From an uncultured Planctomycetota bacterium (GTDB lineage: Bacteria; JAJVIF01; JAPKYR01), in assembly GCA_964354375.1 (NCBI GenBank), contig CAYGZQ010000007.1, positions 29,230 to 93,229 of the forward strand: a stretch of 64,000 nt of DNA. Reading direction: 5' to 3'. Made by a program: the position numbers and the translations under genes. Positions 1 to 19,553 of the stretch are shown here, piece after piece (position 1 is the first letter of the stretch; every line of letters starts with the position of its first letter). The notes under the pieces were generated by a model, which was not told the DNA's origin, ran no database searches, and worked only from the letters and a program-made list of their open reading frames with translations.

Positions 1-798
<798 letters not shown>

Positions 799-959
799 CT
801 CAAGGACCACGCTCGCGAGCTGAGCACCGAGGTCTACCCCGTGCCCGAGTACATCGACCATCAGGTCGCTGAGCTGAAGCTGGCCGCGATGGGGGTCACG
901 ATCGACCAGCTCACACCCGAGCAGATCGAGTACCTCTCCAGCTGGCAGGAAGGGACCTA
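799..959 (+). other. In-frame continuation of ahcY after the internal TAG; it encodes the canonical AhcY C-terminal tail.
   Basis: Same frame as ahcY. It translates [53 protein letters not shown], which is the conserved SAH-hydrolase C-terminus, and ends at TAG 957-959. Confidence 0.6.
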
Positions 960-990
960 GATTTCGACAAAGCGCAGGACTCCCGGTGGC

Positions 991-1094
991 TGACGCCGCC
1001 GGTTACGCACTCGCTTACGCTCGTGCTTCGGAATTGGTGTGCAACAATACAGGTCGGAAGCGCGAGCGTAAGCGAGTGCGTAACCGACGGCGTA
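991..1094. repeat. Long imperfect inverted repeat: arms of about 38 bp with two mismatches and a 27-nt loop. It lies directly 3' of ahcY.
   Basis: Arm 991-1029 is tgacgccgccggttacgcactcgcttacgctcgtgcttc. Arm 1057-1094 is its near-exact reverse complement. Confidence 0.6.
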
Positions 1095-1233
1095 AGCCAT
1101 CGGCTCCCGAAGCGCCCAGCAGGGCAGCGGGCATCCAACCTGATGACCCCTTTCATAACACCATTTCCCCCTTTATGATGGTACAATCTCCTCTCCTTGA
1201 AAGGAGGCGTTTGAGATTTTTCGCAAGCTTCCG

Positions 1234-2172
1234 TTGAAAATAACGATCCTGCTCGCGTTCTTCGGGTTCGCTTACGGGATCGGCAACATGGTCACGCCGG
1301 AGATGTACCGGGAGATGTCGCCGGGGAAGCTCGGCTATGTTTTCGTCCCGGACGACGATACGTTTGTCAAGACAAACCACTATCTCGAGATTCGGTTCGT
1401 CCAGATGGGGCCTGAAGCGCCTCTTGCGGCCACAGCATGGATAAGCCGGTCGCCCGACGAAGCTCCTCAGGCGCTTGAGTTCGAGCCCGCGATCTACCGG
1501 GGCAAGGAAACCGACAAGTGGTTCGCCATCCTGCCGCCGCTCGACAAGATAGGCTCTCGATGGTTCTACTACATCATGATCGAGACCAGTGAAGGCCGGA
1601 CAATCGAAATCTGGAAGTCCATGAACCGGCTCGAGAAGCTGTTTTCCGGATTCGAAAAGGACCGGCAGCTTTTCTGGACCACGTACGAGGGCAACGTCGT
1701 GCGCGACATGCCCTACGGCAAGGCTGCGCTGGTGACCCACATAGTGTTCTCGTTCGGCGCGCTTCTCTTTCTGTTCCACACGCTCTACTACGCGCTCTCC
1801 ATTCTGGACAAGCCCGGCTCTCTCGCTTTCATCAAGTGCTTCAGATCGTCATTCTGGGCGCTCCTGATTTTTGCAGTCGGGGCCATTGTCCTGGGAATCC
1901 CAATCACGTGGTACACATTCGGTGTCGGATTCAGCCCGTGGCCCACGCAGGGACTGACATCGCTCGGCGACATAACCGACACCAAGAGCTCCTGGCTCGT
2001 CGTCTGGTGGACCGTTCTGCTCATCAGGTATTTCCGAACCTACAGGGGAGCGCTCGGGGCGGAAATCGAGCCCGCGAAAACAAGAGCGTTCGCGATCTGG
2101 ACAATCGTCGCCCTTCTGGTCACAGTCTTCGTGTTCCTCATCCCGCATAGCCAGTTTTTGCAGTCGAGCTGA
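1234..2172 (+). CDS. Hypothetical polytopic membrane protein.
   Basis: 312-codon ORF with a TTG start at 1234. A soluble N-terminal half is followed by about five hydrophobic helices. I recognise no family. Confidence 0.55.
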   Translation: MKITILLAFFGFAYGIGNMVTPEMYREMSPGKLGYVFVPDDDTFVKTNHYLEIRFVQMGPEAPLAATAWISRSPDEAPQALEFEPAIYRGKETDKWFAILPPLDKIGSRWFYYIMIETSEGRTIEIWKSMNRLEKLFSGFEKDRQLFWTTYEGNVVRDMPYGKAALVTHIVFSFGALLFLFHTLYYALSILDKPGSLAFIKCFRSSFWALLIFAVGAIVLGIPITWYTFGVGFSPWPTQGLTSLGDITDTKSSWLVVWWTVLLIRYFRTYRGALGAEIEPAKTRAFAIWTIVALLVTVFVFLIPHSQFLQSS

Positions 2173-2234
2173 CCTCACCCCCTTGCCCCCTCTCCATCCG
2201 CCGCGGCGGATGGAGAGGGGGCAAGGGGGTGAGG
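2173..2234. repeat. Perfect 62-bp GC-rich palindrome, giving a 31-bp stem. It looks like a terminator or REP-like element, directly after the membrane-protein gene.
   Basis: cctcacccccttgccccctctccatccgcc|ggcggatggagagggggcaagggggtgagg. A partial third copy, gggggtgagg, follows at about 2248-2257. There is no T-tract. Confidence 0.7.
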
Positions 2235-2295
2235 CAGAGGGGGCCGGGGGGTGAGGTCGGGACTTCTCCCATTTCGCGTGCGATACTATTAGTGT

Positions 2296-3225
2296 ATGGA
2301 TTGGCCCTCCGATACCGAGAACTCCGGGTACTATGCGTTTGAGCCGGAGAGGTTTCTTATCCCGCCGATGGAGGGGTTTCTTCGGCGCATTTTCGCAGCC
2401 CGCTGGGGGATGATACTGGTCAGCGGCCCCGAAGCCATGAACCTTCCGGTGATTCTGAATTTCCTGGCCAACTTCGCGCTCCAGCAGGTTTACTACAGCG
2501 AGTTCTCGGCGCAGAAGGCAGATTTCCAGGATCTCGAAAGCGAGAGAAGAAGACTGAGGACCATCGAAGAGGTCCTCGAGGAAGCTCGCGAGGCGGTTTC
2601 CCGGTCCGGCAAGGAAGAGGGCGAGACGGGCGAATACTCCGGACACATTCCGCGCAATTCGGATGTGGTTTTCATCTCCGACCTGAGACCCGAGCTGGTG
2701 TCCGACAGTGTGGCTACGTCGCTCGGGGGCAGGCTTGTGGTGTCGGGCATCCGATCAGAGGGGAGTTTCCCGGCCCTCAGAGCGTTCAAGGACCTTCTCG
2801 GCAGCGATCATCTCGTCGCCGCGAGTCTCATGGGAATCATCGGCCTCAACGTGGTGTCGAGGATCTGCCCCGAGTGCAAGGTGGAAGTTGAGTACGATCT
2901 GGACGATGAGGATTGTTTCCTGATCGGGATGCACAGGAAGAAGCTGCAGGGTTTCAGGGGAATGGGCTGCGAGTCGTGTCAGGGCTCGGGATACATGGGG
3001 AAGATACTCATCCACGAGGGTTTCGAGATGAGCCCGAAGCTGCGTAACGGCCTTCTTGAGTCGCTGCCGCTAAGGCAGCTCAGGATACTCGCGAAGCAGG
3101 AGGGCATGAGGACGCTTCTGGACGCCACGTGGGATCTGGCCGACGCGGGCGAGACAACGCTTGACGAGGTGATTCGCATTGCCGATGTCACCGACCCCGG
3201 CGGGATCGAACTCGCCGACCTGTGA
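2296..3225 (+). CDS. GspE/PilB-family secretion-ATPase-like protein with degenerate Walker A and B motifs (predicted pseudo-ATPase).
   Basis: The C-terminal tetracysteine region RICPECK...GCESCQGSGYMGK...TTLDEVIRI and the His-box-like region VVFISDLRPE...RLVVSGIRSEGSFPALRAFKDL match the GspE core. The P-loop position reads ILVSGPEAMNLPV and has no GKT/S. Confidence 0.7.
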   Translation: MDWPSDTENSGYYAFEPERFLIPPMEGFLRRIFAARWGMILVSGPEAMNLPVILNFLANFALQQVYYSEFSAQKADFQDLESERRRLRTIEEVLEEAREAVSRSGKEEGETGEYSGHIPRNSDVVFISDLRPELVSDSVATSLGGRLVVSGIRSEGSFPALRAFKDLLGSDHLVAASLMGIIGLNVVSRICPECKVEVEYDLDDEDCFLIGMHRKKLQGFRGMGCESCQGSGYMGKILIHEGFEMSPKLRNGLLESLPLRQLRILAKQEGMRTLLDATWDLADAGETTLDEVIRIADVTDPGGIELADL

Positions 3226-3247
3226 CCAGATGGATCGCTTGAAATGT

Positions 3248-3272
3248 GCAGGCCCGATTTTGCCTGCTTTCG
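3248..3272 (+). terminator. Probable rho-independent terminator.
   Basis: The stem-loop gcaggc-ccgatttt-gcctgc is followed by tttcg, about 23 nt after the stop of the GspE-like gene. Confidence 0.45.
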
Positions 3273-3446
3273 AGTATAATTAGATGTGGAAGTTGAGCTG
3301 TAGCTGTACCGTATTTCGATCGTCAGTCTCATTTCCCGCTACCCAATCTGGATTCGGCAACTAGACAGTGGCCGGCGCTTTCACGATGTTCCTTCGCGTG
3401 CCAGCCACGTTGCATAATGAGATTCAGAGAATCCGGGGAGCAGAAG

Positions 3447-4325
3447 ATGAGACCTTCAGACAAGCCAAACCGCCGCCCCCTTTCGTCGCCCAGACGCCTC
3501 GCTCTGCTGGCGACCGCGATATGCCTGTGGATATCCACTCTCTCGATCGTCCTTAACCATGAAATCGCGGTCGAATGGCTTCCCGCCACCGCCCCACGTG
3601 TCGCTCCCGACGGCGTTGTCTACCAGAGCACGGACTACTCATGCGGTCCTGCGAGCCTTGCCACTCTCTTCGGGCACTACAACATCGTAAAGAGTGAGCG
3701 GGAGTGGGCGGAGGTCGCCGGCACAAACCTGTCTGTGGGCACGCGACTGAGCGGGCTGAAGAAGGCGGCGGAGAGCATGGGATTCGAGCCGGTCGCTCTG
3801 AATCCCACATTCGATCAGCTCGACCTGATCTGCCGGCCGTCCATTCTCTTCCAGTCAAAGGACTACCACCTCGTCACGTTCTGGGGAATGGACCGACAGG
3901 GCTGCGCGATCATACGCGATCCCGCGCTGGGACGCACTCGATGGGGTCCGGCTGAGTACGCCGCTTTTACGCCTTCCAGGCCCGATCTCCTCGTGTTCTA
4001 TCCCGGTCGCGTGCCTACGTGCGGACCCGAAAGCTCCAGCATGGAAATCGGCAGAATCCAGAATATGCTTTCTGCGCTGGGTTACTACAAGGGCAAGGTC
4101 GACTGCGCATGGACAGACCGCCTTGCCGCAGCCGTCGCTTCCTTCCAGAGCGACATGCGTCTCGATCCCACCGGAATCGTCGACGCTCCCACGGACATCT
4201 ACCTCGAAGGCGCCTGGCGTCTCGTGACGAACGGGCCCATCGAGCCGTTCATGAGGATCGACTGCACCAATGAACCGACGCATCGGCCGGTAGCCATCCT
4301 GACCCGCCTCTCACCCTCCGAATAA
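3447..4325 (+). CDS. Secreted or membrane-anchored C39-family cysteine peptidase domain protein with a C-terminal peptidoglycan-binding (PG_binding_1-like) domain.
   Basis: The ATG at 3447 has a GGGGAG RBS 7 nt upstream; the longer ORF starts at 3417. The N-terminus has an Arg-rich n-region followed by a TM helix. The C39 motifs are present: Q-x5-CGPASL (YQSTDYSCGPASLATLF) and HLVTFWG...IRDP. The PG-binding-like repeat is IQNMLSALGYYKGKVDCAWTDRLAAAVASFQSDMRLDPTGIVD. Confidence 0.7.
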   Translation: MRPSDKPNRRPLSSPRRLALLATAICLWISTLSIVLNHEIAVEWLPATAPRVAPDGVVYQSTDYSCGPASLATLFGHYNIVKSEREWAEVAGTNLSVGTRLSGLKKAAESMGFEPVALNPTFDQLDLICRPSILFQSKDYHLVTFWGMDRQGCAIIRDPALGRTRWGPAEYAAFTPSRPDLLVFYPGRVPTCGPESSSMEIGRIQNMLSALGYYKGKVDCAWTDRLAAAVASFQSDMRLDPTGIVDAPTDIYLEGAWRLVTNGPIEPFMRIDCTNEPTHRPVAILTRLSPSE

Positions 4326-4409
4326 GCAGCGGCTCCCCCCGAGTGCGCCGGCTTTCCAGCCGGCATTCGTTTGCATCCAACGGTGCGTTTTACGCTATAA
4401 TTCGGCGAC

Positions 4410-5192
4410 TTGAGCGAGAACGCCACAAAGCCCCTGGTCTGTGTTCCCACCTTCAACGAGCGCGAGAACATCTCGAAGCTGATTGGCTGCATATTCGATG
4501 CGATCCCGTTTGCCGAGATCATGATAGTCGACGACGGCTCGCCGGACGGCACCGGCGCTATTGTCGACGAGATGGCGTCGAAAAATCCGCACATTCATTG
4601 CATCCATCGCGCGGGCAAGATGGGGCTTGGGACCGCCTACATCGCCGCCTTCAAATGGGCCCTCGAGCGCGACTACACCCATTGCTTCGAGATGGACGCC
4701 GATTTCAGCCACGACCCGAAGGATCTGCCGAGACTCCTCGACGCAACGAAGGAATTCGACATCGCGATCGGGTCGAGGTTCTATGCGGGGAAGCTCTCGA
4801 TAGTCAACTGGCCGCTGTCAAGGCTCATCCTGTCGCTCGCCGCCACCGTCTACGCCCGGGTGATCACCGGCTTGAGGCTGTGGGACTGCACGACCGGCTT
4901 CAAGTGCTTCCGACGGAAGGTGCTCGAACACCTGCCCCTCGATAAGGTGAAAAGCGAGGGCTACTCGTTCCAGATCGAGATGAATTTCCGCGCGACCAGA
5001 ATGGGCTTCAAGGTGGGCGAGATACCGATCGTCTTCACCGACCGCACCCAGGGTGGCAGCAAGATGTCGAAGAGGATCGTCTTCGAAGCGATCTGGCGGG
5101 TATGGCAGCTTCGATGGGCCGGGGCTATGGAGGATTTGGGCTGCCTGCTAAGGGGAAAGCGTCGCCCCAGACCGGGCAGAGCACAGGGTTAG
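4410..5192 (+). CDS. GT2 glycosyltransferase, polyprenol-phosphate mannose/glucose synthase (Dpm1/Ppm1-like).
   Basis: PTFNERENI, IMIVDDGSPDGTG, the DXD-containing EMDADFSHDP and QGGSKMS are typical of the Dpm1 family. It has a TTG start and a TAG stop. Confidence 0.8.
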   Translation: MSENATKPLVCVPTFNERENISKLIGCIFDAIPFAEIMIVDDGSPDGTGAIVDEMASKNPHIHCIHRAGKMGLGTAYIAAFKWALERDYTHCFEMDADFSHDPKDLPRLLDATKEFDIAIGSRFYAGKLSIVNWPLSRLILSLAATVYARVITGLRLWDCTTGFKCFRRKVLEHLPLDKVKSEGYSFQIEMNFRATRMGFKVGEIPIVFTDRTQGGSKMSKRIVFEAIWRVWQLRWAGAMEDLGCLLRGKRRPRPGRAQG

Positions 5193-5193
5193 C

Positions 5194-6936
5194 CTAATCC
5201 GAACGCGGCTTCGCCTTATTAGCGACTTCCACTATCTGATCAAGCACCTCTCCGATCTCAGGGTCAACCAGCTCGTCCGGAACATGTCTGGCCAGTTGAT
5301 GATAGTGACTCTTGCTCATCAGATTCGGCATGTTGAGCTTCTGGAAGAAGAAAGGAAACAGTATGTCCAGGAAATCGTCGCTCGCCTTCTTGTCGATCCA
5401 CCAGGCGCTTGTCGGGTCGCGGAGCGCAAACGGGGGAACCACCTCTTCAATCGCCTCTCTCATCGCATTCTGACACTCGGTCATTTCTGACTCCGCAAAC
5501 AGTGGACCAAGCGATCGCTTCTGGCCAAACTCCCCGGCGTACGATAACAGGGTTTCTCCCTGGCAAAGATAGTTTTCAATTTCTCTGCGTCTCCACATAT
5601 GTTCCGGCAATTCCTCCCGGTCCAGCGGTTCCTTGTCAGTGCGGTCAGTCAAAATAAAGCCGACAAGGTCTCTCTTGGCCTCACGCAGCCCGCTGAAGTG
5701 CGCTCTGGCCTTGGAGGGAGAATTGCCGACATAGTACACAAACGGCCGTTCCAGCTTATCCTTCGCCGGATGGCGCAGCTTCTCGGCAAAAGCTCTTAGA
5801 ATGGCCAGATCGCTGGAACCTTCCAGATATAGAACCCACCCGGTCTGCTCAGCCTGATAGTACTGGTCGAAACCTATTTCGCGCAGAGATTTCAGTAGCT
5901 GGCTCCCCCGATCGTCAATCCTGTGAGGCGGCCCCACGAACGCCACAACCATATCCCTCCCGGCAGCCTCGGTGAGGACAACCTCAGAGTGACTGGCTGC
6001 AATGACTTGGCTCCCCGATGACCGAGCCGTCTCAGTAAGGATCTGGTAAATCTGTCTCTGGCGCAGGATTTCCAGATGTGCATCAGGCTCGTCGAGAAGA
6101 AGAACAGCTCCCGGATTGGCCGTCATGAAGGCCATCAGCAAAAGGGTTTGCTGAAGGCCGCGACCTGATGACGACAGGTCGAGAGTGACGCCTTTGAGTG
6201 TTTCATAGGTCATGATGATTTCATGCCTCTCGGTGACGACTGGGGAGTTCAACTGTACACCAAAGAGTCCTCTAATCCTGCCACTGACGAAATCCCATTT
6301 GTCCTTTCCCGATTCACCGGAGTAAAGCTGATAGCAGAGATTCCTCAGGACCTCCGCGGTGCGGCCCTGGTCAATCAGGAACCGGATTTCTCCTTTCTGC
6401 TTGACAAACTCGCGATCCGCCAGTCCGGACATCGGTGGGAGAAACGCCAGCTCGGTTCCGATCGCGGGTTTAGGTATGGGTATTCGCTTCGGTTTCTTGC
6501 TTTCGTCGAGCCTCAAGGGCCGACAGTAAATCGATTCTACGTTGGCAAAGTCAAACTCCAATCCGCAGTCCCACGGCATCGACTCGCTCAGGCTCACCCC
6601 TGAGACAATGATGTCTATCCTCACCTTTCTCGGCTTTTCATCTTTATCCCTTGGTTTTGCGAATAGATGCAGATCACGCCAGATGAGTTTCGCATCCGGA
6701 ATCGGCAGGGCAGTGAGATCCTGTCTATTGATGGCTACTCCCGGCCTTTCCTTTGATGATTCGTCAGAGCCATGTTTCTCGATCCACTTCTTCAACCCAA
6801 TATCCCAAAGAGCCAAAGCCTGAAGAGCGGTTGTCTTTCCGGAGTCATTGGGGCCGATGAAGACAACAGCATCGCCAAGCTCGATCGTCACATCGCCGAA
6901 TCGTTTGAAGTTCTTGACGCGCAGTTCAGTAAGCAT
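5194..6936 (-). CDS. OLD-family-like ATP-dependent nuclease: an N-terminal ABC/AAA_15-21 ATPase with a C-terminal TOPRIM/DUF4435-like domain.
   Basis: Walker A is FIGPNDSGKTT inside the MLTELRVKNFKRF N-terminus. There is an ABC signature-like SSGRG, followed by the Walker B/D-loop LLLDEPDAHLE and the H-loop ASHS. The C-terminal part has LYLEGSSD and ILTDRTD acidic motifs that resemble TOPRIM. The region looks AT-richer than its flanks. Confidence 0.7.
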   Translation of the reverse strand: MLTELRVKNFKRFGDVTIELGDAVVFIGPNDSGKTTALQALALWDIGLKKWIEKHGSDESSKERPGVAINRQDLTALPIPDAKLIWRDLHLFAKPRDKDEKPRKVRIDIIVSGVSLSESMPWDCGLEFDFANVESIYCRPLRLDESKKPKRIPIPKPAIGTELAFLPPMSGLADREFVKQKGEIRFLIDQGRTAEVLRNLCYQLYSGESGKDKWDFVSGRIRGLFGVQLNSPVVTERHEIIMTYETLKGVTLDLSSSGRGLQQTLLLMAFMTANPGAVLLLDEPDAHLEILRQRQIYQILTETARSSGSQVIAASHSEVVLTEAAGRDMVVAFVGPPHRIDDRGSQLLKSLREIGFDQYYQAEQTGWVLYLEGSSDLAILRAFAEKLRHPAKDKLERPFVYYVGNSPSKARAHFSGLREAKRDLVGFILTDRTDKEPLDREELPEHMWRRREIENYLCQGETLLSYAGEFGQKRSLGPLFAESEMTECQNAMREAIEEVVPPFALRDPTSAWWIDKKASDDFLDILFPFFFQKLNMPNLMSKSHYHQLARHVPDELVDPEIGEVLDQIVEVANKAKPRSD

Positions 6937-7027
6937 GGCTTATCACGCTGGTTTGGGTTCACTCACTCCCCAAACCGTTTCCAGTTCAAGGGTACATAAT
7001 CGACCCGGCGATGTCACCGCACCGTAC

Positions 7028-7885
7028 TTAGCCGAGGTTTATGTTAAATCCCTTCGAGCCTGAGCCGCGTTCGAACGGCAGGAAGGGCGTCAGTCGACCC
7101 GCCAGGCCCGGCATGGTCATGTGCTGAATCCATACCTTGCCGGGGCCGGTCAGCCTCGCCAGGAAAATACCCTCGCCACCGAGAAATATGTTTTTGAATC
7201 CTTTCTGAAGCTTGATGTCGTAGGTCACGCTTGCCTCGAAACACGCGATATGCCCCGTGTCGATGAGAAGGCTCTGGCCGGGCTGAAGATCCCGGGTGGT
7301 CAGCTCGCCGTCGATCTCCAGGAACACCAGGCCCGGACCGGTGAGCTTCTGCAAAACCAGGCCCTCGCCGCCGAAGAAAGCCGCCCCCGCTCCCCGCCAT
7401 TCCATCGCGAGGTCCACCTCCTCCTGTCCGACCAGGAAACTTCCGCGCTGCGCGATGATCGCTTCTCCCGCCTTCAGCTCGAACGGGAGTATCTTGCCGG
7501 GGAAGCTCGATGCAAACGCGACAGTGCCGGGCGCATTCTCGGCTTTGAAGTAGTTGAGGAAAAGGCTTTCGCCCTGTATGGCGCGACTGGCGGCCTTCAG
7601 AAAAGTGTCCAGCGCGCCCTTGCTCTCTTTCCCTTTTTGAATGGACGTTTCCATTTCTATCGAGGCGTCCATCCAGACCATCCCTCCCGTCTCGGAGAAC
7701 ACTCGCTCCCCCTGGGGGAGGTCGATCTCCACTGTCTGCAGAATCTCGCCCGCAATACGGTAGACGAGCGGTTTGGGCTGGGCCGGTGCGACAGACGCCT
7801 CCTGGGCTCCTCCCGTCTTCGCCCCGCATTCCGGGCAGAACTTCGCGTTGTCATTCAGTTGCTTTCCGCAGTTTGGACAGAACAT
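7028..7885 (-). CDS. Protein with an N-terminal double zinc ribbon followed by an AIM24/TIGR00266-family domain.
   Basis: MFCPNCGKQLNDNAKFCPECGAKT is followed by a roughly 230-aa region with Gly-rich beta motifs (GGEGLVLQKLTGPGLVFLEIDGEL, GGEGIFLARLTGPGKVWIQ) typical of AIM24/DUF124 proteins. Confidence 0.65.
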   Translation of the reverse strand: MFCPNCGKQLNDNAKFCPECGAKTGGAQEASVAPAQPKPLVYRIAGEILQTVEIDLPQGERVFSETGGMVWMDASIEMETSIQKGKESKGALDTFLKAASRAIQGESLFLNYFKAENAPGTVAFASSFPGKILPFELKAGEAIIAQRGSFLVGQEEVDLAMEWRGAGAAFFGGEGLVLQKLTGPGLVFLEIDGELTTRDLQPGQSLLIDTGHIACFEASVTYDIKLQKGFKNIFLGGEGIFLARLTGPGKVWIQHMTMPGLAGRLTPFLPFERGSGSKGFNINLG

Positions 7886-7944
7886 GCCGTTGTTAATCCT
7901 CCGATGTAGAGTTTATCAGCCGAAGCCCAAAAAGCTCCGGCATA

Positions 7945-9108
7945 CTAGACCAGTTTCGTTCCGCATTTGTTGCAGAATTTCTCCTCCGGGTCGACTTGAT
8001 CGCCGCATTTCGGACAGAAGTTCGGCTTGGCTTCCCCAATGGACGGCATCTCGGGAGCGGCTTTCTCCTCCACCGCTTTCGGATGTCGCCTGCCCGCAAG
8101 CACAGCAACAAGTATCACCACGCCCGCAAGCAGAACCAGTATCACCCACCAATACAGGATCACGAATTTGATAATCAGCACCAGGACAATCGACAGCACA
8201 AGGCTTATGACACCTATCACGAATCTCAGCCCGCCACCGACGAAAGGCACGTACTTCAGCAGAAACAGAAGCGGTCCGATTATCAGGTTGAAGCCGAGGA
8301 AGAACAGAATCACACTCAACGCAGTCAGACCCCACTTGGCGGCGCTTTCGCTTGCCGCCAGATCGGCCACGAGCTCATCGGCGCTCTTGTCGGTGATGAT
8401 GAACGGCGTCCCCGACGAAATCCTGTCGCTGACCATCTCTCCCACCACGACCAGGTCGCCGACATCCTCAATCGGCAGATACTCGACAAGAAGCCATCGC
8501 GACCCGAGAGTCTCCGGACCCTTGTCCTGGCAACTCTCGAACCTCGTCAGCCTCAGGTCGGATTCCCTGGGAAGGACCTCGATCTCGCCGAGCATGAATG
8601 AAGAGGCAGCCTGGGTCTGTTCATCGAGGACCTGCCAGTCCTGGACCATGTACTGCTCCTCGACCGTTTCCTGGACTTCCTGACCGTTGACGGTGCGCGT
8701 CACAGTCTTCTGCCTTGTCTCCGGGTGCTCCCTGAACTCCTTGAGGGCCGTGTGATACCAGAAGACATCCTCTTTCGCATTGATTTCCTTGCACGCGATG
8801 TCGAAAGGCATCACCTCGACATTCTCGGGTTTCCCGTGGACCTTCAGCAGGCCGGTCTGTCCTTTGGCCTCGGCAGCGGTGAGAAGCGGCAGCGCATCGA
8901 GGGTCTTGCTGTGCTCTGCAACCCCTCTCACCGAGCACCACGCCGGAACAAAGGCCAGAGCGAACAGGATAAATCCGAGGAACATGCCTCCGATCGAGTC
9001 CATACATCCCTGCTTGGTGTCGCGGAAGCCTTTCGCCAGTGGATTCGCGCTCCCGAGCACTTTTCTGGACACTACGCGGGAACCGATGAATCTCTCTCTT
9101 GGGCTCAT
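7945..9108 (-). CDS. Membrane protein with an N-terminal signal/TM helix, a roughly 200-aa extracytoplasmic domain, a C-terminal TM bundle and a terminal double zinc ribbon.
   Basis: There is a GGAGGG RBS before the ATG at 9108. A hydrophobic stretch runs FLGFILFALAFVPAWC. The extracytoplasmic domain is followed by three or four TM helices. The C-terminus is FCPKCGDQVDPEEKFCNKCGTKLV. Confidence 0.6.
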   Translation of the reverse strand: MSPRERFIGSRVVSRKVLGSANPLAKGFRDTKQGCMDSIGGMFLGFILFALAFVPAWCSVRGVAEHSKTLDALPLLTAAEAKGQTGLLKVHGKPENVEVMPFDIACKEINAKEDVFWYHTALKEFREHPETRQKTVTRTVNGQEVQETVEEQYMVQDWQVLDEQTQAASSFMLGEIEVLPRESDLRLTRFESCQDKGPETLGSRWLLVEYLPIEDVGDLVVVGEMVSDRISSGTPFIITDKSADELVADLAASESAAKWGLTALSVILFFLGFNLIIGPLLFLLKYVPFVGGGLRFVIGVISLVLSIVLVLIIKFVILYWWVILVLLAGVVILVAVLAGRRHPKAVEEKAAPEMPSIGEAKPNFCPKCGDQVDPEEKFCNKCGTKLV

Positions 9109-9174
9109 TTCGACCCCCTTCCCTCCGGCACCGGGCCGGATGGGCGACAGTTTGTGATTGACAGCCGAAAAAAC

Positions 9175-12100
9175 TCAATATCCCGACACATACACTTCGT
9201 CGATCTGCCAGCCCGCTCTGGAAGCTCCCAGCGAGCCGACAGCAGCGGCGAACGCGAGACGGAAACCGTCCGGATTCCCCACCCATGCCGGGTCCAGGTT
9301 GCACACCGTAAGCCTCATAAACTTGGGATTCGAATCGTTGCAGAAAGCCGGCATTCCTATAAGCTCGTTGTTCCCAAGGATCACGCAGTCATACTCATTA
9401 AACCCACCGTCAAGGTCTGCCGGAAGCTCGCCCCACAGGAAGTCGGTCAGGTAGTCCTTCCCGTTGACGATATGCACGTTCCCGCCGTCCTGGCAGAACC
9501 CCGTAAGTCCGTAATCGTCGAACTCGTAAGAATGTGTGAAGACAAGTTGCAGGGTTGTGAATCCGGGAGGCACGAAGATAGGAGGCGAGAACAGCACCGA
9601 ATGCGTCAGAAGATCGTATTTGTACGTGCTTCCCGAGAACAACGGACCACGACCCACAAGGTTCGGATTCTGGTGCCATCCTATATACCAGCTTGAGGAT
9701 CCCCCGGAGTCGAAATCCTTGATCCAATCGTTCCTGTCATAGTCGGTCGCGCTGAACTCCCAATCGGCATGAAACAATGCGCCGCCTCCGACGCACCATT
9801 CGCTTCGCACTTCCGGCAGATGGAATGCGTCTTGGGCCACTACCGGGATCCAGTAGCGATTGACGTTTTCGTCGAGATAGCCCAGCTCGGAGCCGACAAT
9901 GTCCTCGACCTTGAACGAGATCGAATCGCCGGACACGTCGCCATAATAAACGTCCTCCACCCGCCGCCCGGGAGAACGGTAATCCCAAAGGTACCACTGG
10001 TAATAGACTCGATCGCCGTCGGGATCCTCGGCGGGAAGCTGCAAAGTAACCTGCTGACTCCAGCCCGGCGTCAGGTTCCCACCCTCGATCTCGTCCACCG
10101 TCGGCGGATCATTGGGCTGGTCGTCAAGGATGTACACCGAGACATCGTCGATCATCCAGCCCCTCGCGTTCGGGAAGTCCTGATTCAAGGCCGTGCTTGC
10201 CGCGAAACTGACCCTGATATCGTGTCCGGCAAATAGTGGATCGATTCTGGCTACACTGGTCGTCAGGGTATGATGGGTGCCCGAAAAAACGTCCTGGTTC
10301 AGAAGCTTGTTCTGGGTGCCCTCATATATGGGCTTCGCCCAGTACTCCCTTCCGGCTTTGATATTGGCCGGCGTGATGCCATGGGAGAGTATCTCGCCGG
10401 CCTCGGTGATCTTTACGTTTCCGCCGCTGTAGGCCTGCCAGTAGTTGGGGCTCGCGCTACCGTAAATTTGCCCGAAGTCGAAAGAATGCCTGAAGACGAC
10501 TATTCCCTGGGTCATTGCGGACGGCAGATGGATTGCCGGGCTGACGAGAATGTCGGACGACCCGTAATCATAATCGGTGTTCGCTGCGCCGAACTTCCGA
10601 CCGGTCCCATCGAGCGTATCGTCCGTCACGGCGTCGTCGGTCCATCTCGACGGTCCCTCGCCTTCCAGAGTCGCCCAGCCGATGTTGTCGCCTTTGTCTG
10701 CATCGTCCATGCTTGCATGAAAAATCTGGCCATTGACCCACACCGTATACGGATCGGCATTCACAGAAGCGTTGTAACCGTCGTCCACCTTGCACTTGAT
10801 CAGCCACTCGCCCTCCTGAATGCCCGTGGAACTGAAAATCACATCAATCGTCCCATCTTTGTTGCCCTCTCCCAGATCGACCGTGAGTATCCCCTCGGGA
10901 TGCACCACTTTCCAGTTGTATTTGAGCGGAAGAACGCTGTCGACCTTGACCTGGTATGTCACCTCATGCTTGTTTCGCGGATAGAGAGGTCCGGAAATCC
11001 CCTCGGTGATAACCGGCGGCTCGGGCTGCACATGGGGCACAAGCTCGAGCTGGTACTGCACCATCTCGGTTTCGTTCAACGTGATGACACGGATGAAATA
11101 CTGTCCGACATCGCAGACAAGCGACGTATCCAGGCTGCCGACTCCCCCGATCACTTCCGCCTGCGCGATTTTCGTCTCGGACGCATCATAGATCGTGACA
11201 AAGGTCTGCGGGGACGTGGTGTAGAGGTTCACCATCCCCTGCTCCCAGACCTCGGACCCGTTTTGAAATGAATAATAGTCCTTGTAGTCGGTCAGGCTGC
11301 CCCCAAGGCGGCATAACGATCCCTGTGCGACGTCCATCCACTCCAGCGCCTCCGCATCGTCGATCCCGTTGTTCTCATCCGCGACGCATTCCAGCTTGGG
11401 GACGTTGATTATCAGTTCCTGAAAAGCGCTGACCGGCTCGTCAGGAGCCTCGGGAAGTCCCGTGTTGTACTTCAGCCCATCGTTGGAGCCCACTCGAATC
11501 AGCACCAGATGGTCGCCGTCGTGATTGGGAATCGCCTTGCCGCTAAGGTCTATCCGATACCGGGCCTTCGTGCCGTCATCGGATACGAAATTCATCGTCT
11601 GGCCTCCCGAAAACAACTCGGGCGCAAATATTCTGACCGTATCGACTTCCGCCGCGACATTCCCGTTCGCCTTCCCCTGCCAGTCGTAAACATCAGCGTT
11701 TATGACAAGCTGTCCCTTGCCTCCCACTCCCTCCTCAAAACATAGCGTGTTCAATTCGACATGGGCGTCGACATGATACGGTTCCGACTGATTAGCCTCG
11801 ATCGGGAAATCGTCGGGGATTTCCTGCGGGGGAAACGGATCGGGATAATCCCAGCATGCGTCGACGGCATAGTTGAACACGGCCGGACAATCAGTGGCTT
11901 GTGGAGGCTTGACTCTGTATCGTCGCTTGCATGTGGTGCCGACGTACGACACTCCGCGACCGAGGTCATCATCGAGCGGGACATTCGCCATGCTCGTCAC
12001 GGGCTGATACTTGTCGAGGTAGTCGCAGAAGTACTTGTAGGGATTCACGGTGGCGGTCAGCAACTCTGTATCCTGGGTGCCTAGCTCACCGGGCACGTAG

Positions 12101-12630
12101 CCGTTCAAACCCGAGCCTGTAAACTCCCTGGGGTTCCACCAGCGCGTGTACCCGTCCGCATTCAGAAGCCTCCATTCGTCAACGTCCGATACGACAAGAT
12201 TGCCGATCTGCAGGCTGCCCGGCGTCATGAGAATCCCCTTGGCGTCGAAGCCGTACAAACTCGGGCTGTCCGGATACGGATGCGTAAAGGTGAAATCCAG
12301 CGCGAAGATCTTGTTGGGAATGTCGCTTGCCTGCCAGTCAAACCAGATGCCCACGCAGTCATAAGTGTTCAGAGGCTCCACCAGGTTGACATGGAATCCG
12401 GCCGACCTCAGCGGCGTCATCTCGACCGTCAGATTTTCGGTGTCAAGCCTTACCTCCCACAGTCCGAGGAGACGATGATGCGTCCCGCTCTCGTCGCGAC
12501 CGGCAGGGAAGCTCAACGAAGGACTCGACGGATCTCCGCGATCCGATCCTGAGCAGCCTGCCCCGACGCACCACGCAACCGCCGCCATCACCAGGATGCA
12601 TGCCGACCAAACGGCTCTTCGCTTGACCAT
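9175..12630 (-). CDS. Giant lipoprotein, family member A (1151 aa): conserved N-terminal module, a PPC-like segment and two or three MAM/jelly-roll-like modules.
   Basis: GGAGGTGA RBS. Signal peptide plus lipobox VGAGC. The N-module motifs are LLGLWEV, ADGYTRWWNP, TATVNPYKYFCDYL, FNYAVDACW and IPDDFPIEAN. It also has CRLGGSLTDYKDYYSF and repeated C-terminal modules ending GWMIDDVSVY and GWQIDEVYV. Confidence 0.8.
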   Translation of the reverse strand: MVKRRAVWSACILVMAAVAWCVGAGCSGSDRGDPSSPSLSFPAGRDESGTHHRLLGLWEVRLDTENLTVEMTPLRSAGFHVNLVEPLNTYDCVGIWFDWQASDIPNKIFALDFTFTHPYPDSPSLYGFDAKGILMTPGSLQIGNLVVSDVDEWRLLNADGYTRWWNPREFTGSGLNGYVPGELGTQDTELLTATVNPYKYFCDYLDKYQPVTSMANVPLDDDLGRGVSYVGTTCKRRYRVKPPQATDCPAVFNYAVDACWDYPDPFPPQEIPDDFPIEANQSEPYHVDAHVELNTLCFEEGVGGKGQLVINADVYDWQGKANGNVAAEVDTVRIFAPELFSGGQTMNFVSDDGTKARYRIDLSGKAIPNHDGDHLVLIRVGSNDGLKYNTGLPEAPDEPVSAFQELIINVPKLECVADENNGIDDAEALEWMDVAQGSLCRLGGSLTDYKDYYSFQNGSEVWEQGMVNLYTTSPQTFVTIYDASETKIAQAEVIGGVGSLDTSLVCDVGQYFIRVITLNETEMVQYQLELVPHVQPEPPVITEGISGPLYPRNKHEVTYQVKVDSVLPLKYNWKVVHPEGILTVDLGEGNKDGTIDVIFSSTGIQEGEWLIKCKVDDGYNASVNADPYTVWVNGQIFHASMDDADKGDNIGWATLEGEGPSRWTDDAVTDDTLDGTGRKFGAANTDYDYGSSDILVSPAIHLPSAMTQGIVVFRHSFDFGQIYGSASPNYWQAYSGGNVKITEAGEILSHGITPANIKAGREYWAKPIYEGTQNKLLNQDVFSGTHHTLTTSVARIDPLFAGHDIRVSFAASTALNQDFPNARGWMIDDVSVYILDDQPNDPPTVDEIEGGNLTPGWSQQVTLQLPAEDPDGDRVYYQWYLWDYRSPGRRVEDVYYGDVSGDSISFKVEDIVGSELGYLDENVNRYWIPVVAQDAFHLPEVRSEWCVGGGALFHADWEFSATDYDRNDWIKDFDSGGSSSWYIGWHQNPNLVGRGPLFSGSTYKYDLLTHSVLFSPPIFVPPGFTTLQLVFTHSYEFDDYGLTGFCQDGGNVHIVNGKDYLTDFLWGELPADLDGGFNEYDCVILGNNELIGMPAFCNDSNPKFMRLTVCNLDPAWVGNPDGFRLAFAAAVGSLGASRAGWQIDEVYVSGY

Positions 12631-12669
12631 CTCGACTCACCTCCGCATGCGATTCGGACTTGAACTCGG

Positions 12670-15600
12670 TCACTCCACCCCGTAAAGAACGACCTCATCA
12701 ATCAGCCACCCTCTGCGTGGCACACCGGACAGGCTTGAGGACGCCGCGAATCCGACGCGAATGCTCATCGGGTCCGCCAGCCACAAAGGATCAAGATACG
12801 CGTAGGAGATCCTCATTGCAGCCGGGGCCTCGTCGTTACAGAAGGCATCCTGACCGCCAAGCAGACCACCCGACTCAAGCTGGCAATCATACGGGAAGCC
12901 TATGTCCATCTGTTCCGGGGGGTCGAACCAATGGAAATCGGTCAGGTAGTTGTCAGCCTCGACAACGTGCACGTTCCCGCCGTCATGGCACTCCGAGACC
13001 ACATCATCATCGTAGAACTGGTAGTAATGGGCGAACCCGATCATCGCTTCGCTGAATCCGGGAGGGATGAAAATCGGGGGAGTGAAAAGCACTGCGTGAT
13101 CGTCAGTCGTGTAATCGGTGTCCGCATCGGCGAACTTGTACCCACACCCGCCGAGCACCGAATCCGTCACGCTCGCACCGTGCCATGTCGAGTCGCTGCC
13201 TTCGTCGAACGCGGTATCCCACTCGGCCTTATCGTAATACGGAGTCGGGTCATCGGGATCAAACCAGAAGAGAATCCCGTTGCCCACCGTCCACGCTTCC
13301 CTCTTTATTCCCTCATGATATCCGTCTGTTACCGACACGCTGACTCGGAATCGATTGCTGTAGCCACCGGTCACGAGATCGCTGATGACGAAGTCAAGAG
13401 CGGGGGCGATCGGATCGTAGTAGATGTTCCTCACTCGAACGCCGGGATACCGGAAATCCCACAGCGACCAGGTTCTGTAAATTGCGTCCCCGTCCGGATC
13501 GGACGCCGCCATCGCGTAATGAAGAGGATCATCCATATGGGGCGCAAGGTCCCCGCCTTCCAGCGGTCCGGCATCGGGTTCCTGATTGGGAGCATCTCCC
13601 TCGACATATACCGCGACATCGTCGATCAGCCAGCCGCGGTAGTTTGAGTATTCATGTCCGGTTGTCACGGCAAAGCCGATGTAGATATCGTTTCCGGCCA
13701 TTGCCGGAGGAATGCTCGCGGCGGAGACGGTGAGTCTGAACGGATCGGAAGCCTCATTCGACCGGTAGCAGAACGCCTGCTGGTCCTCCATCAGGGTATC
13801 GCCCTGGATCAGCTGGGACCAGCATGGCATCCCTCCCGTAATCTCGGCCGGCAGAACGTCGTAGGACGGGAGCTCGGGCGCCTCCGTTATCTTCACATTG
13901 CCTCCGTCGTATCCCTCCCAGAACTCGTACCCCGGCCTCGTCTTGGCAATGTCGAGGTCGTACGAGTGACGGAAAGCGATAATCCCGTGACCCATCCCGC
14001 TCGGAAGACTCACGGGCGGGCTCACAAGGATGTCGGACGAATTGTTCGTGTAATTAGTATTCGCCTCTCCAAACTTTCGACCTTCGCCCTGAAGCAGGGT
14101 GTCCGAGGTGGCCAACAGGGTCCACGCCGTGGTTCCAGCCTGCCCCACATGGGTCCAGCCCGCATTGTCTCCAGTCGTGTCATCGTTCAAATCAGCATGG
14201 AAAATCTGACCGTTAACCCAGACATGGTATGGGTCGGCCGAGACCGGTCCCCCCACCCCGTTCGTGACTTCACAACGGATCTCTGCTTCCCCCAGGATAC
14301 AGAAATCCGAGAACTTGACCTCCAGATGACCGTTGCCGTCGCCCGGATCGGGTCCGAACACCACAAAACCCGAGTCCACGATAGTCCAGCCATACGTCAC
14401 CGGCCAGACTGAATCAACCCCGATTTCGTACAGGGTGTTCTGTGCGCATCGGGGATACTTGTATCCGCTGATTTGGCTCACGATCACCGGCGCTGAGACG
14501 TCCTGAGCGTTCCCCTTGAGATCGACGTAGTAGTAGATCGTGTCCACTTCGTTCATTGTCAGAACGCGGAGATAATAGGTCCCCGGCATCAGGTAAAGCG
14601 CGCCGAGATCGATCTGGGCCTTCCCGCCGGAAATCTCCGATTGCGTCAGCTTCGTATGGGTCGAATCGAACACGCTCAGGAAGACCATGTTCGACCAGGC
14701 ATAGAGCGTGGCTGATCCTGTAAGCCCCTTGTCTACCGGAATTTCGAAGGAGTAGTAGTCGCTGTAGTCGATCAGCTCTCCGCCAGGGCGGCAGAGAGTC
14801 CCGTAGGCGGAGTCGATGAGATCGAACGGTTCCGCAGTGGCAAAAGTGTTGTTTCCGTCCGGGCCGCATTCGAGTTCCTCGACATTGACCCAGAGCACCT
14901 GGTAGGCGCTTAACGGCTGGTCCGGAGCTCCCGGCGCAAATGAGTTGTACTTCAGGCCGTCGTTCGATCCGACCCGGAATATCACCTGATGCTCACCTGA
15001 GCGCGCGGGGTTCACGATTCCGCTCAGATCAACGGAATAGACCGCCTTGACTCCCGTGTCCTGCACAAGGCTCATGGTCTGCCCCCCGCTGAAAAGCTCG
15101 GGAGCGAAAACCCGCACCGTGCTGACCTGGTCCGCGATGTTCCCGAGCGCCTGACCCTGCCAGTCGTACACTTCGAGCGTCAACAGGAGATTTCCACCGC
15201 CACCGGTCCCCGCATCGAATCCCAGCGTGTTCACATCGGCTCTCGGAAGCAAATGGAACGCCTCCGGCTGGTTAGCCTCCATTGGGAAATCATCCGGAAT
15301 TTCTCCGGGTGGATTCGGCACCGGCGGCGCCCATGATGCGTCCACTGCGTAGTTGAAGATGACCTGGGGACCGGGGGACATCTGGAACCAGATGAAGTAC
15401 CTTCTCGTGTTCGACGATCCGGCCGTGAACACCCCCCTGCCCTCGTCATCGTCCAGACCGACAAATTCGATCAGCTCTTCGATTGGCTGCTTAAACCCGA
15501 GGTAATCGCAGAAATATTGGTACGGATTCACGGTCGCAGTCAACAGGCCCGTGTTCGCGGTTCCCAGATTGCCCGGGATATATCGCATCATTCCCGACCC

Positions 15601-16137
15601 GTGGAACTCTGTCGGGTTCCACCATCTCGTATACCCGTCGGCACTTGTCAGGCGTGTCTCGGTCGGTCCTGCGAACACAAGATTCCCAACTACCTGGGTG
15701 CCGGGAGTAATCATGATGCCCTTCACGTCGAAACCCGCAAGCTGCGGGCTCGTTGCGAAAGGATGGGTCAGCGTCACGTCCACCGTGAACTTGCCCATCG
15801 CCGGGTCGCTGGCCGGGAGGTCGATAACCGCAGCCACTCCCATGGTCGAGTTGAGTATCCCCACGACATTCATGTGGAACGCGCTGTTCCTGAGCGGGAT
15901 CATCTCTACCGTCATCTTGTCGCGATCCAGTATCGCCTCCCAGTATCCCCACAGCCCGTGCGCCGCGCCCTTCGAAGAAGAAGCCGCGGCTTGAGTCAGT
16001 GCCTGCGAATCAACGCTCGTCTCCCCGGAAGCTCCCGGGGCAACCGGAATGTCGCCGGAACATCCCGCGGCAAGAAACACCGTGGCAAGAGCGAGGAAGG
16101 GAAGAGTACTACGCGTCCAGAGAATCAGCCGTTTCAT
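12670..16137 (-). CDS. Giant lipoprotein, family member B (1155 aa), a tandem paralog of A.
   Basis: AAGGAG RBS and lipobox LAAGC. The whole protein is collinear with A: HGLWGYWEA, ADGYTRWWNP, TATVNPYQYFCDYL, FNYAVDASW, IPDDFPMEAN, CRPGGELIDYSDYYSF, and GWLIDDVAVY / GWLIDEVVLY. Confidence 0.8.
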   Translation of the reverse strand: MKRLILWTRSTLPFLALATVFLAAGCSGDIPVAPGASGETSVDSQALTQAAASSSKGAAHGLWGYWEAILDRDKMTVEMIPLRNSAFHMNVVGILNSTMGVAAVIDLPASDPAMGKFTVDVTLTHPFATSPQLAGFDVKGIMITPGTQVVGNLVFAGPTETRLTSADGYTRWWNPTEFHGSGMMRYIPGNLGTANTGLLTATVNPYQYFCDYLGFKQPIEELIEFVGLDDDEGRGVFTAGSSNTRRYFIWFQMSPGPQVIFNYAVDASWAPPVPNPPGEIPDDFPMEANQPEAFHLLPRADVNTLGFDAGTGGGGNLLLTLEVYDWQGQALGNIADQVSTVRVFAPELFSGGQTMSLVQDTGVKAVYSVDLSGIVNPARSGEHQVIFRVGSNDGLKYNSFAPGAPDQPLSAYQVLWVNVEELECGPDGNNTFATAEPFDLIDSAYGTLCRPGGELIDYSDYYSFEIPVDKGLTGSATLYAWSNMVFLSVFDSTHTKLTQSEISGGKAQIDLGALYLMPGTYYLRVLTMNEVDTIYYYVDLKGNAQDVSAPVIVSQISGYKYPRCAQNTLYEIGVDSVWPVTYGWTIVDSGFVVFGPDPGDGNGHLEVKFSDFCILGEAEIRCEVTNGVGGPVSADPYHVWVNGQIFHADLNDDTTGDNAGWTHVGQAGTTAWTLLATSDTLLQGEGRKFGEANTNYTNNSSDILVSPPVSLPSGMGHGIIAFRHSYDLDIAKTRPGYEFWEGYDGGNVKITEAPELPSYDVLPAEITGGMPCWSQLIQGDTLMEDQQAFCYRSNEASDPFRLTVSAASIPPAMAGNDIYIGFAVTTGHEYSNYRGWLIDDVAVYVEGDAPNQEPDAGPLEGGDLAPHMDDPLHYAMAASDPDGDAIYRTWSLWDFRYPGVRVRNIYYDPIAPALDFVISDLVTGGYSNRFRVSVSVTDGYHEGIKREAWTVGNGILFWFDPDDPTPYYDKAEWDTAFDEGSDSTWHGASVTDSVLGGCGYKFADADTDYTTDDHAVLFTPPIFIPPGFSEAMIGFAHYYQFYDDDVVSECHDGGNVHVVEADNYLTDFHWFDPPEQMDIGFPYDCQLESGGLLGGQDAFCNDEAPAAMRISYAYLDPLWLADPMSIRVGFAASSSLSGVPRRGWLIDEVVLYGVE

Positions 16138-16274
16138 TCCGCAACACTCCTTTGCATTCGAATTGTTTCACTAGCCGACCGCACGCGAACACCCGTTGCC
16201 TTGAGCCTGTTAACGAAACACAATAATAAGGTATAAGGTTTTGTGCCGTCAAACATCGACACACCGCGGCTTCG

Positions 16275-16667
16275 TCAGACGGCCAGGTACATCACGAGAA
16301 GCTGGGCCGCGGCCATAAGCACAGACAGCGTCCCGAGTACGATCACAAGCGGGTACAGGCTCAGCGTCCCGTACTTCCGCAAGGCCTTACGCATCATGAC
16401 CCCGATGATCGACACAATCAGCAGGAGGATATGGTAGCCCATCATGGTCCGCGCGAAATCGTCCATCGGGATCCACATGCCGGTCCTGAGCCGGGCGACC
16501 ATCTGCCAGGCCATCGCCCAGACTCCCAGCGTCACGATGAAAAGAAAAATCCCGGTGAATCTAAACAGGATCAAGTAGCCGTACGGTATCGCAGGCTCAG
16601 GAATCTCGCTTATTACTGGATCATCTATCGGACCAAACATCTCGCTTTCTGTAGAACGGATACTCAC
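16275..16667 (-). CDS. Small hypothetical integral membrane protein (130 aa, about four TM helices).
   Basis: Clean ORF co-directional with its neighbours, with hydrophobic helices throughout. Confidence 0.5.
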   Translation of the reverse strand: MSIRSTESEMFGPIDDPVISEIPEPAIPYGYLILFRFTGIFLFIVTLGVWAMAWQMVARLRTGMWIPMDDFARTMMGYHILLLIVSIIGVMMRKALRKYGTLSLYPLVIVLGTLSVLMAAAQLLVMYLAV

Positions 16668-16671
16668 AAGA

Positions 16672-17937: not shown

Positions 17938-17998
17938 CGTCCCGGGTGATTCGAGTACTCTACCCTAAGAGGTCATGCAAGAGCAATCCCCCCCCATC

Positions 17999-19342: not shown

Positions 19343-19553
19343 GACTAACCCAGCCGGAAAGCAGGCGCAACAGAAGAATCACCGCAAGGGCGCCAAGAAC
19401 ACCAGGGACACCAAGAAGACGGACAAAATGAACCTTAACAGCAGGAAAATATCTCTGAATGGGGACGAGAGGCGGCCTCATACCAGGAATCGTCGCCCGA
19501 AAGGTTGATACCCAGGCTCGCAAGCAATAGAATACCGATTCCGTTTGCTTCAG

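Follow-up and report, generated by a model that had tools for sequence, protein, structure and literature searches.

Several described antiviral systems combine an ABC-type ATPase with a Toprim nuclease domain. The class 1 OLD nucleases (e.g., P2 Old and the enzymes of Thermus scotoductus (TsOLD, 6P74) and Vibrio cholerae) carry both in one chain and are defined by a single gene that lacks a conserved partner (PMC10568477). In Gabija, the class 2 OLD nuclease GajA is accompanied by the UvrD-like GajB; class 3 comprises the retron-linked forms, and class 4 is PARIS, which has the ABC ATPase AriA and the DUF4435-type Toprim nuclease AriB. The PARIS ATPase AriA is a protein of ~55 kDa whose inserts are helical and coiled-coil, while the catalytic residues of AriB are E26, D30, D88, E90 and E122 (PMC11464382). 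AbiL (AbiLi ATPase and AbiLii Toprim) and MADS3-4 are further defense pairs in which an ABC ATPase goes with a Toprim protein, whose ATPases belong to the same AAA_15/AAA_21 clade (PMC11464382). Moreover, the hma operon is a hotspot for inserted defense systems, PARIS and Septu included (PMC11232893; see also PMC8565338). Here, we describe a gene for a predicted fused ATPase–Toprim protein from an uncultured Planctomycetota bacterium, which lies on the minus strand of a 64,000-nucleotide stretch (hereafter the window) covering positions 29,230 to 93,229 of contig CAYGZQ010000007.1 (assembly GCA_964354375.1). Reasoning largely by analogy, we lean, with a confidence somewhat better than even, toward the view that it encodes a single-chain OLD nuclease of PARIS-like type, which stands alone, moves horizontally and probably functions in defense by the mechanism proposed below.

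The ATPase head and the predicted Toprim domain

The 580-residue protein matches only ABC-type ATPase families in Pfam, namely AAA_15 (67 bits) and AAA_21 (76 bits). All the motifs that an initial annotation of the window had quoted are present in the translation: GPNDSGKT, LLLDEPDAHLE and ASHS in the N-terminal part (Table 1), and LEGSSD (residues 371–376) and ILTDRTD (residues 428–434) further downstream. The N-terminal part is an ABC ATPase head with every nucleotide-binding motif intact. Across 55 homologues, the Walker A residues G28, P29, N30, G33, K34 and T35, the residues G258, G260 and Q263 of the signature-like motif, and A314, S315, H316 and S317 of the H-loop are invariant, as are nearly all positions of the Walker B/D-loop stretch from L279 to E289 (in up to 55 homologues); the mean column identity of the family alignment is 70–73%. 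The best sequence match of the head in the PDB is TsOLD, with Rad50, SMC and GajA also retrieved, and its PADLOC matches include many GajA models, AbiLi and mad3.

The region C-terminal to the head lies outside all Pfam models. Its predicted structure (predicted local distance difference test, pLDDT, 87) finds its best Foldseek matches in the C-terminal Toprim regions of the class 2 OLD nucleases 6NJV and 6NK8 (probability 1.0), followed by AriB. Likewise, the model of the entire protein (pLDDT 83.5) retrieves TsOLD 6P74 and GajA chains as top matches, with both domains aligned, and PtuA is also matched. The OLD-family architecture proposed in the initial annotation, with an ABC head followed by a C-terminal Toprim domain, is thus borne out at the level of the predicted fold; membership in DUF4435 or OLD-like_TOPRIM is not. 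When the C-terminal 255 residues alone were compared with Pfam, NCBIfam and PADLOC, nothing emerged beyond a weak match to AriAB (E 0.008); the whole protein matches the PADLOC AriAB model (PDLC02981) with an E-value of 1.9e-16 and 58 bits, residues 272–469 aligning with model positions 327–533 of 694. These sequence-level links to AriAB are weak but mutually consistent. Conservation in the region is concentrated at three sites: E372 and G373 are invariant and D376 is at least 90% conserved; D431 is invariant, R432 at least 90% conserved and residue 434 a D or E in most homologues; and I453, E454 and N455 are invariant, with E452 and Y456 at least 90% conserved. We consider E372, D376, D431, D/E434, E452 and E454 to be the putative metal-binding set, which resembles that of AriB.

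Comparison with the individual systems shows a mixture of shared and divergent features. With PARIS, the protein appears to share the E-x3-D form of the first acidic motif, with the spacing of E26 and D30 of AriB, and an AriAB model match that crosses the ATPase–Toprim junction; further, PARIS also exists in merged forms made of one gene (PMC11464382), and PARIS too is inserted in hma operons (PMC11232893). It differs in that its DUF4435 match is not significant and the AriAB score is low, in that its ATPase part of ~335 residues bears in the monomer model a β-rich insert (residues 60–250) and no long coiled coil, whereas AriA-type inserts form a hexameric scaffold for trigger sensing, and in that a fused nuclease cannot leave the ATPase as AriB does. 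Conservation in its family also far exceeds that of AriA's trigger-sensing parts, which are described as poorly conserved (PMC11464382). With the class 1 OLD nucleases, it shares the single gene without a conserved partner and the order of ABC ATPase and Toprim in one chain of similar length, and TsOLD is both its top full-length structural match and its best PDB sequence match; however, sequence similarity is limited to the ATPase motifs, and no helical dimerization insert is evident in the model. The overall ATPase–Toprim fold is also that of GajA, itself among the top full-length Foldseek matches, but no UvrD-like GajB gene adjoins the gene in the window, where its neighbors code for an AIM24 protein and a GT2 glycosyltransferase; nor is the UvrD family among the 25 families most matched by 122 immediate-neighbor proteins from 65 loci. 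As for class 3 OLD systems, no reverse transcriptase open reading frame (ORF) adjoins the gene and no Rfam family was found in window positions 1–20000. Finally, the AbiLi and mad3 models match the head, but AbiL and MADS3-4 are two- or multi-gene systems, unlike the fused, solo protein, and the MAD3 score of 43 bits compares with an NCBIfam cut-off of 420 bits. By context the protein is a class 1 (solo) OLD, and by the predicted fold of its nuclease it is closest to class 4 (AriB); its ATPase is compact, with the β-rich insert in place of helical inserts like those of TsOLD or AriA. Because merged AriAB genes are already known, it is a divergent variant and not a new kind of system.

Fused ATPase–Toprim proteins of ~580–600 residues are also encoded in four viral contigs from IMG/VR (L101, 5998–7791; L104, 5962–7758; L110, 5998–7788; L103, 334–2079; homologous loci are denoted by L numbers throughout). 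These are 22–27% identical to the window protein and follow its pattern of motifs, with LLIVEG..DE, IRDRDDE and WRRRH.xNY, the RRxhxNY pattern paralleling the EIENY region of the window protein. For two of the three scanned (L103 and L104), AriAB is the best PADLOC match (E ~5e-26). It is possible that such proteins bridge the window family and merged PARIS.

The zinc-ribbon pair and the variable slot beside it

Two genes lie upstream of the ATPase gene. By Pfam and NCBIfam, the product of one is an AIM24/TIGR00266 protein whose zinc ribbon is N-terminal, and that of the other a TMEM43/GIDE-like membrane protein whose zinc ribbon is C-terminal, which bears out the AIM24 protein and the membrane protein of the initial annotation. 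That annotation had taken all three genes together for a possible undescribed OLD-associated defense system. In keeping with such a system, the three ORFs are co-directional on the minus strand with gaps of 91 bp (ATPase and AIM24 genes) and 59 bp (AIM24 and membrane genes), no terminator-like site separates the AIM24 and ATPase genes, and L001/L002 (ATPase 81% identical) and L004 (64%) show the same arrangement. However, these relatives, the only ones in which the trio recurs, are syntenic with the window in every flanking gene and are not independent evidence. Elsewhere the association fails the co-location test that the initial annotation had itself set: none of the 86 other ATPase loci, which are spread over more than 15 phyla and leave out the close syntenic relatives L001–L004, has a gene for either partner within 6 kb. 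More generally, no conserved neighbor is seen across 84 ATPase loci, and the only ORF clusters that many of them share, two of these large, run antisense within the ATPase gene itself. At four unrelated metagenomic sites, the gene lies amid housekeeping genes.

The converse comparison, centered on the partners, points the same way. The AIM24 gene lies beside the membrane-protein gene in all six loci with a homologue of the latter (L001, L002, L004, L011, L015 and L016; e.g., 7028–9108 in the window, 3794–5843 in L011, 6001–8051 in L015 and 6001–8074 in L016), and the membrane-protein family is tiny, with 24 homologues found. Judging from these sequences, the two form a conserved adjacent pair of a narrow lineage. 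The slot between the AIM24 gene and that for the GT2 glycosyltransferase varies among relatives: it holds the ATPase gene in the window (5193–7027), L001 and L004, but a 520-residue SBBP/NHL-repeat protein in L015 (8109–9671; AIM24 80% identical to that of the window) and a 1003-residue protein without a Pfam domain in L016 (8156–11167; AIM24 77% identical). In L011, the pair lacks the ATPase and stands in another context, next to LptF/G, and more distant zinc-ribbon AIM24 genes stand alone. Therefore, the slot that the ATPase fills is variable and borders on a two-gene unit specific to the lineage. In addition, only the ATPase gene is compositionally atypical, and against L002 it has 81.5% nucleotide identity, as compared to 93–94% for both partners. 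Because no ATPase locus outside the close syntenic relatives has a partner gene within 6 kb and the pair persists without the ATPase, we give almost no credence to the three-gene system, and these comparisons indicate that the ATPase gene stands alone with no functional tie to the zinc-ribbon pair.

A second variable spot was noted in L001, where positions 11760–12897 code for a HEPN and nucleotidyltransferase pair (an MNT-type toxin–antitoxin) and a BLIP-domain protein; these genes are absent at the matching place in the window (~1123–1177).

Against their respective cut-offs, the AIM24 protein scores 218 bits for PF01987 (cut-off 25.7) and 135 bits for TIGR00266 (cut-off 96.6), with 38 bits for the ribbon family PF13240; its nearest solved structures, PA3696 (1YOX) and SpyM3_0169 (1PG6), are both of unknown function. 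The membrane protein scores 33 bits for PF07787 and 34 bits for PF13240, and has hydrophobic stretches at residues 34–64 and 258–343. The double zinc ribbons initially ascribed to both do not hold up: each has a single four-cysteine ribbon with PF13240 above threshold, the DZR match being sub-threshold with half of the profile matched.

The coordinates of these features are collected in Table 1. In the window, the first start codon of the AIM24 gene gives a 285-residue protein and the 59-bp gap (7886–7944), but in relatives (e.g., L001, 4814–5728) the protein is called with 304 residues from a start 2 bp past the membrane-protein gene, so that the true start, and with it the gap, may be different. 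A scan of positions 4900–9400 gave no promoter-like and four terminator-like sites, counts no greater than in shuffled sequence, and neither kind falls in the leader of the ATPase gene. This leader is 72.5% identical to that of L002, as against 93–95% for the flanking genes. An inverted repeat of 20 nucleotides (6887–6906 and 6998–7017, 80% complementary) would pair it with codons 11–17 of the ATPase gene, which might reflect an mRNA fold or chance. Upstream of the pair are tandem paralogues (9175–12630 and 12670–16137) of ~1150 residues each and 44% identical over their full length, which are predicted lipoproteins with a signal peptide ending in GCSG and without a significant Pfam domain. 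L001, L002 and L004 retain at least one copy upstream of the zinc-ribbon pair.

Table 1. Features of the ATPase gene and the adjoining pair, in window coordinates; GC3 is the GC fraction at third codon positions
Feature	Coordinates	Strand	GC	GC3	Basis
Stand-alone OLD-family gene (580 residues): ABC ATPase head, predicted AriB-like Toprim and helical C-terminal region	5194..6936	-	0.535	0.62	ORF; translation; Pfam AAA_15/AAA_21; full-length model similar to TsOLD 6P74 and GajA
ABC-type ATPase head, residues 1–335, β-rich insert at ~60–250	5932..6936	-			Pfam and PADLOC ATPase matches; PDB sequence matches; model secondary structure
Walker A GPNDSGKT, residues 28–35	6832..6855	-			Translation; conservation
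ABC signature-like motif LSSSGRGLQQ, residues 254–263	6148..6177	-			Translation; conservation
Walker B and D-loop LLLDEPDAHLE, residues 279–289	6070..6102	-			Translation; conservation
H-loop ASHS, residues 314–317	5986..5997	-			Translation; conservation
Predicted C-terminal Toprim and helical domain, residues 366–580, outside all Pfam models	5197..5841	-			
Putative Toprim metal-binding motif EGSSD (E372, D376)	5809..5823	-			Conservation; AriB correspondence inferred from motif spacing
Putative second acidic motif DRTD (D431, D434)	5635..5646	-			Conservation
Conserved EIENY (E452, E454, N455, Y456), putative third acidic Toprim element	5569..5583	-			Conservation
91-bp leader between AIM24 and ATPase genes	6937..7027	-			
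AIM24/TIGR00266 protein (285 residues), N-terminal four-cysteine zinc ribbon; neighbor outside the ATPase unit	7028..7885	-	0.600	0.75	PF01987; TIGR00266; PF13240
TMEM43/GIDE-like membrane protein (387 residues), C-terminal four-cysteine zinc ribbon; neighbor outside the ATPase unit	7945..9108	-	0.574	0.74	PF07787; PF13240

Composition, spread and operonic contexts of the ATPase family

The initial annotation had described the whole block as AT-richer and had seen in the low GC a sign of horizontal acquisition. The description is correct for the ATPase gene alone, the AIM24 and membrane-protein genes being neighbor-like in composition. The ATPase gene has the lowest GC of any gene in the window, and both of the lowest of 623 sliding 1743-bp stretches fall on it (window mean 0.586, standard deviation 0.015); its GC3 stands below the 0.71–0.82 of its neighbors and is low in many other family loci too. 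Indeed, despite a protein identity of 54–64% between phyla, the gene is poorer in GC than its flanks in 80 of 84 family loci (L001–L096), with a mean deficit of 5.3 points and a maximum of 14. The AT bias is a compositional signature of the whole ATPase family rather than of the window, and acquisition of the ATPase gene by horizontal transfer is consistent with it. One copy, 59% identical and encoded on a contig assigned to a Bathyarchaeota archaeon metagenome-assembled genome (MAG; L021, 6001–7725), shows no GC difference from its flanks; it represents either a cross-domain transfer or a binning error.

The comparison with L002, where the ATPase gene occupies 6001–7749, is also informative in this regard. 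The low nucleotide identity of the ATPase gene (the flanking genes, like the partners, are at 93–95%) is distributed as a mosaic: codons 45–150 and 346–580 have a synonymous divergence (dS) of ~1.0, as against 0.06–0.34 for codons 1–44 and 151–345 and 0.15–0.32 for the flanking genes. The ratio of nonsynonymous to synonymous divergence (dN/dS) for the gene is 0.19, which signals purifying selection. The mosaic suggests intragenic recombination with imported divergent alleles rather than faster point mutation. Together with its patchy presence among close relatives at one slot, the gene looks horizontally acquired, with its insertion having taken place between the zinc-ribbon pair and the glycosyltransferase gene.

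The ATPase has more than 8000 homologues, of which the best 120, from several phyla, each show 60% identity or more along their full length. At least 474 carriers, mostly from uncultured soil, sediment and sponge phyla, were recovered in a scan of species genomes, and 80 genome loci were kept for comparison. These loci come from Planctomycetota, Acidobacteriota, Chloroflexota, Poribacteria, Latescibacterota, Proteobacteria, Verrucomicrobiota, Actinomycetota, Nitrospirota, Cyanobacteria and the above-noted Bathyarchaeota MAG.

Several observations weigh against the interpretation of this family as a mobile, PARIS-like defense nuclease. The first concern the nuclease itself: the similarity of the C-terminal region to TOPRIM or DUF4435 that the initial annotation had set as a condition is not seen in Pfam, there being no match for the last 255 residues at E-values up to 10. 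Neither OLD-like_TOPRIM (PF20469) nor DUF4435 (PF14491) is matched by this region in the window protein, and each is matched in just one of 16 homologues (E 0.13 and 0.15, respectively). Moreover, a C-terminal profile run against PDB sequences finds only a chance ribosomal match, and the second acidic motif has the form DxxD/E, neither DxD nor DxE, which is one residue off from the D88-x-E90 of AriB. The Toprim assignment accordingly comes from the predicted fold and not from Pfam membership. The second group concerns mobility and context. No family match at E 1e-10 or better was found in the PLSDB plasmids or the INPHARED phages, and only two of 2.9 million IMG/VR contigs carry the family. 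No direct or inverted repeats bracket the gene in the window, no tRNA is nearby and no Rfam family in the first 20,000 positions marks the insertion. About 85% of the ATPase loci, the window included, lie amid housekeeping or metabolic genes and not in defense islands, and an identity of 54–64% among more than 15 phyla is higher than is usual for a defense gene.

A rival reading is that the ATPase–Toprim protein is instead a conserved housekeeping enzyme, acting, for example, in DNA repair, at stalled replication or in RNA processing, with a low GC that stems from amino-acid and codon constraints. The full-length nature of the cross-phylum identity, the high column identity of the alignment, the position of most loci amid housekeeping genes (e.g., ffh, rpsP, trmD and radical SAM genes), the absence from plasmid and phage collections, and the purifying selection seen against L002 all speak for it. 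Yet presence and absence differ among close relatives at one slot, GC3 and not just GC at the first and second codon positions is depressed, and the segments with a dS of ~1.0 point to imported alleles. Furthermore, the nearest structures without exception belong to anti-phage nucleases, and the gene recurs, closely packed, within type III restriction-modification and Hma operons; unlike most housekeeping genes, it also has no conserved genomic neighborhood. We hence regard a housekeeping role as unlikely.

The embedding just mentioned is seen in 10 of the 80 genome loci (~12%), where the ATPase gene lies either between the type III restriction-modification genes Res and Mod (L026, L032, L036, L080, L091 and, in partial form, L067) or between HmaA and HmaB (L020, L025, L041 and, in partial form, L023). 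Where the ORFs read out, in L032 (2–5596), L041 (1296–9417) and L080 (1454–8875), the genes are separated by gaps or overlaps of 3–4 bp. Embedded arrangements of the two kinds occur in several phyla. The Res proteins of four cassettes are 66–69% identical to each other, which suggests that Res-ATPase-Mod moves as a single cassette. We also considered the possibility that the ATPase is HmaC and rejected it: HmaC is a DUF499 ATPase, and no Hma model is among the 25 best PADLOC matches.

Both the tight junctions, recurring in several phyla, and the similarity of the Res proteins between cassettes could be taken to mean that type III-like restriction-modification and Hma systems use the ATPase primarily as an accessory subunit, with the solo copies being orphans that outlasted the lost restriction-modification genes and have little or no function of their own. 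However, the arrangement accounts for a small minority of genome loci, and in the solo copies all catalytic motifs are retained and purifying selection is at work. Moreover, its occurrence in two unrelated host operons argues for an inserted independent module, as described for PARIS and Septu in hma (PMC11232893). This explanation is consequently, in our estimate, quite improbable, more so than a housekeeping role.

Proposed mode of action and implications

For the favored interpretation, that of a solo OLD nuclease, a mode of action can be sketched from PARIS (PMC11464382) and from class 1 OLD and Gabija (PMC10568477). By analogy to PARIS, P2 Old and Gabija, sensing and switching would fall to the ATPase head, whose nucleotide or oligomeric state would shift in response to a cue from the phage (e.g., an anti-restriction protein). 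The change of state would license the putative two-metal site of the Toprim domain (E372, D376, D431, D/E434 and E452/E454) to cut nucleic acid; the substrate would be tRNA for an AriB-like enzyme and DNA for an OLD- or GajA-like one. Cleavage would then arrest the growth of the infected cell or cause the phage to be lost. With nuclease and ATPase fused, activation would have to be conformational or by oligomerization and not by the release of the nuclease in the manner of AriB. In the restriction-modification and Hma operons, the ATPase may act as a back-up layer for the host systems. A more specific version is that the family is an unrecognized single-chain branch of PARIS/OLD, an anti-anti-restriction sensor-effector that cuts tRNA like AriB, riding type III and Hma operons and surviving alone amid housekeeping genes in hundreds of mostly uncultured bacterial species; we offer it tentatively, as a conjecture that is possible but rather doubtful.

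As a practical result for the window, annotation should not list the AIM24 protein and the membrane protein as defense partners. What remains, as far as the sequences indicate, is a solo OLD/PARIS-like family that is very widespread, conserved to an unusual degree and linked repeatedly to restriction operons. Its predicted nuclease domain lies outside Pfam models and may therefore escape standard domain and defense-finder annotation; the source annotations of the homologues read only “AAA family ATPase” or are mislabeled as a transporter ATPase. The embedding between Res and Mod and between HmaA and HmaB presents a testable case of layered immunity. If the family does defend against phages, it would add a widespread single-gene system of the OLD/PARIS type, present in at least 474 species genomes.

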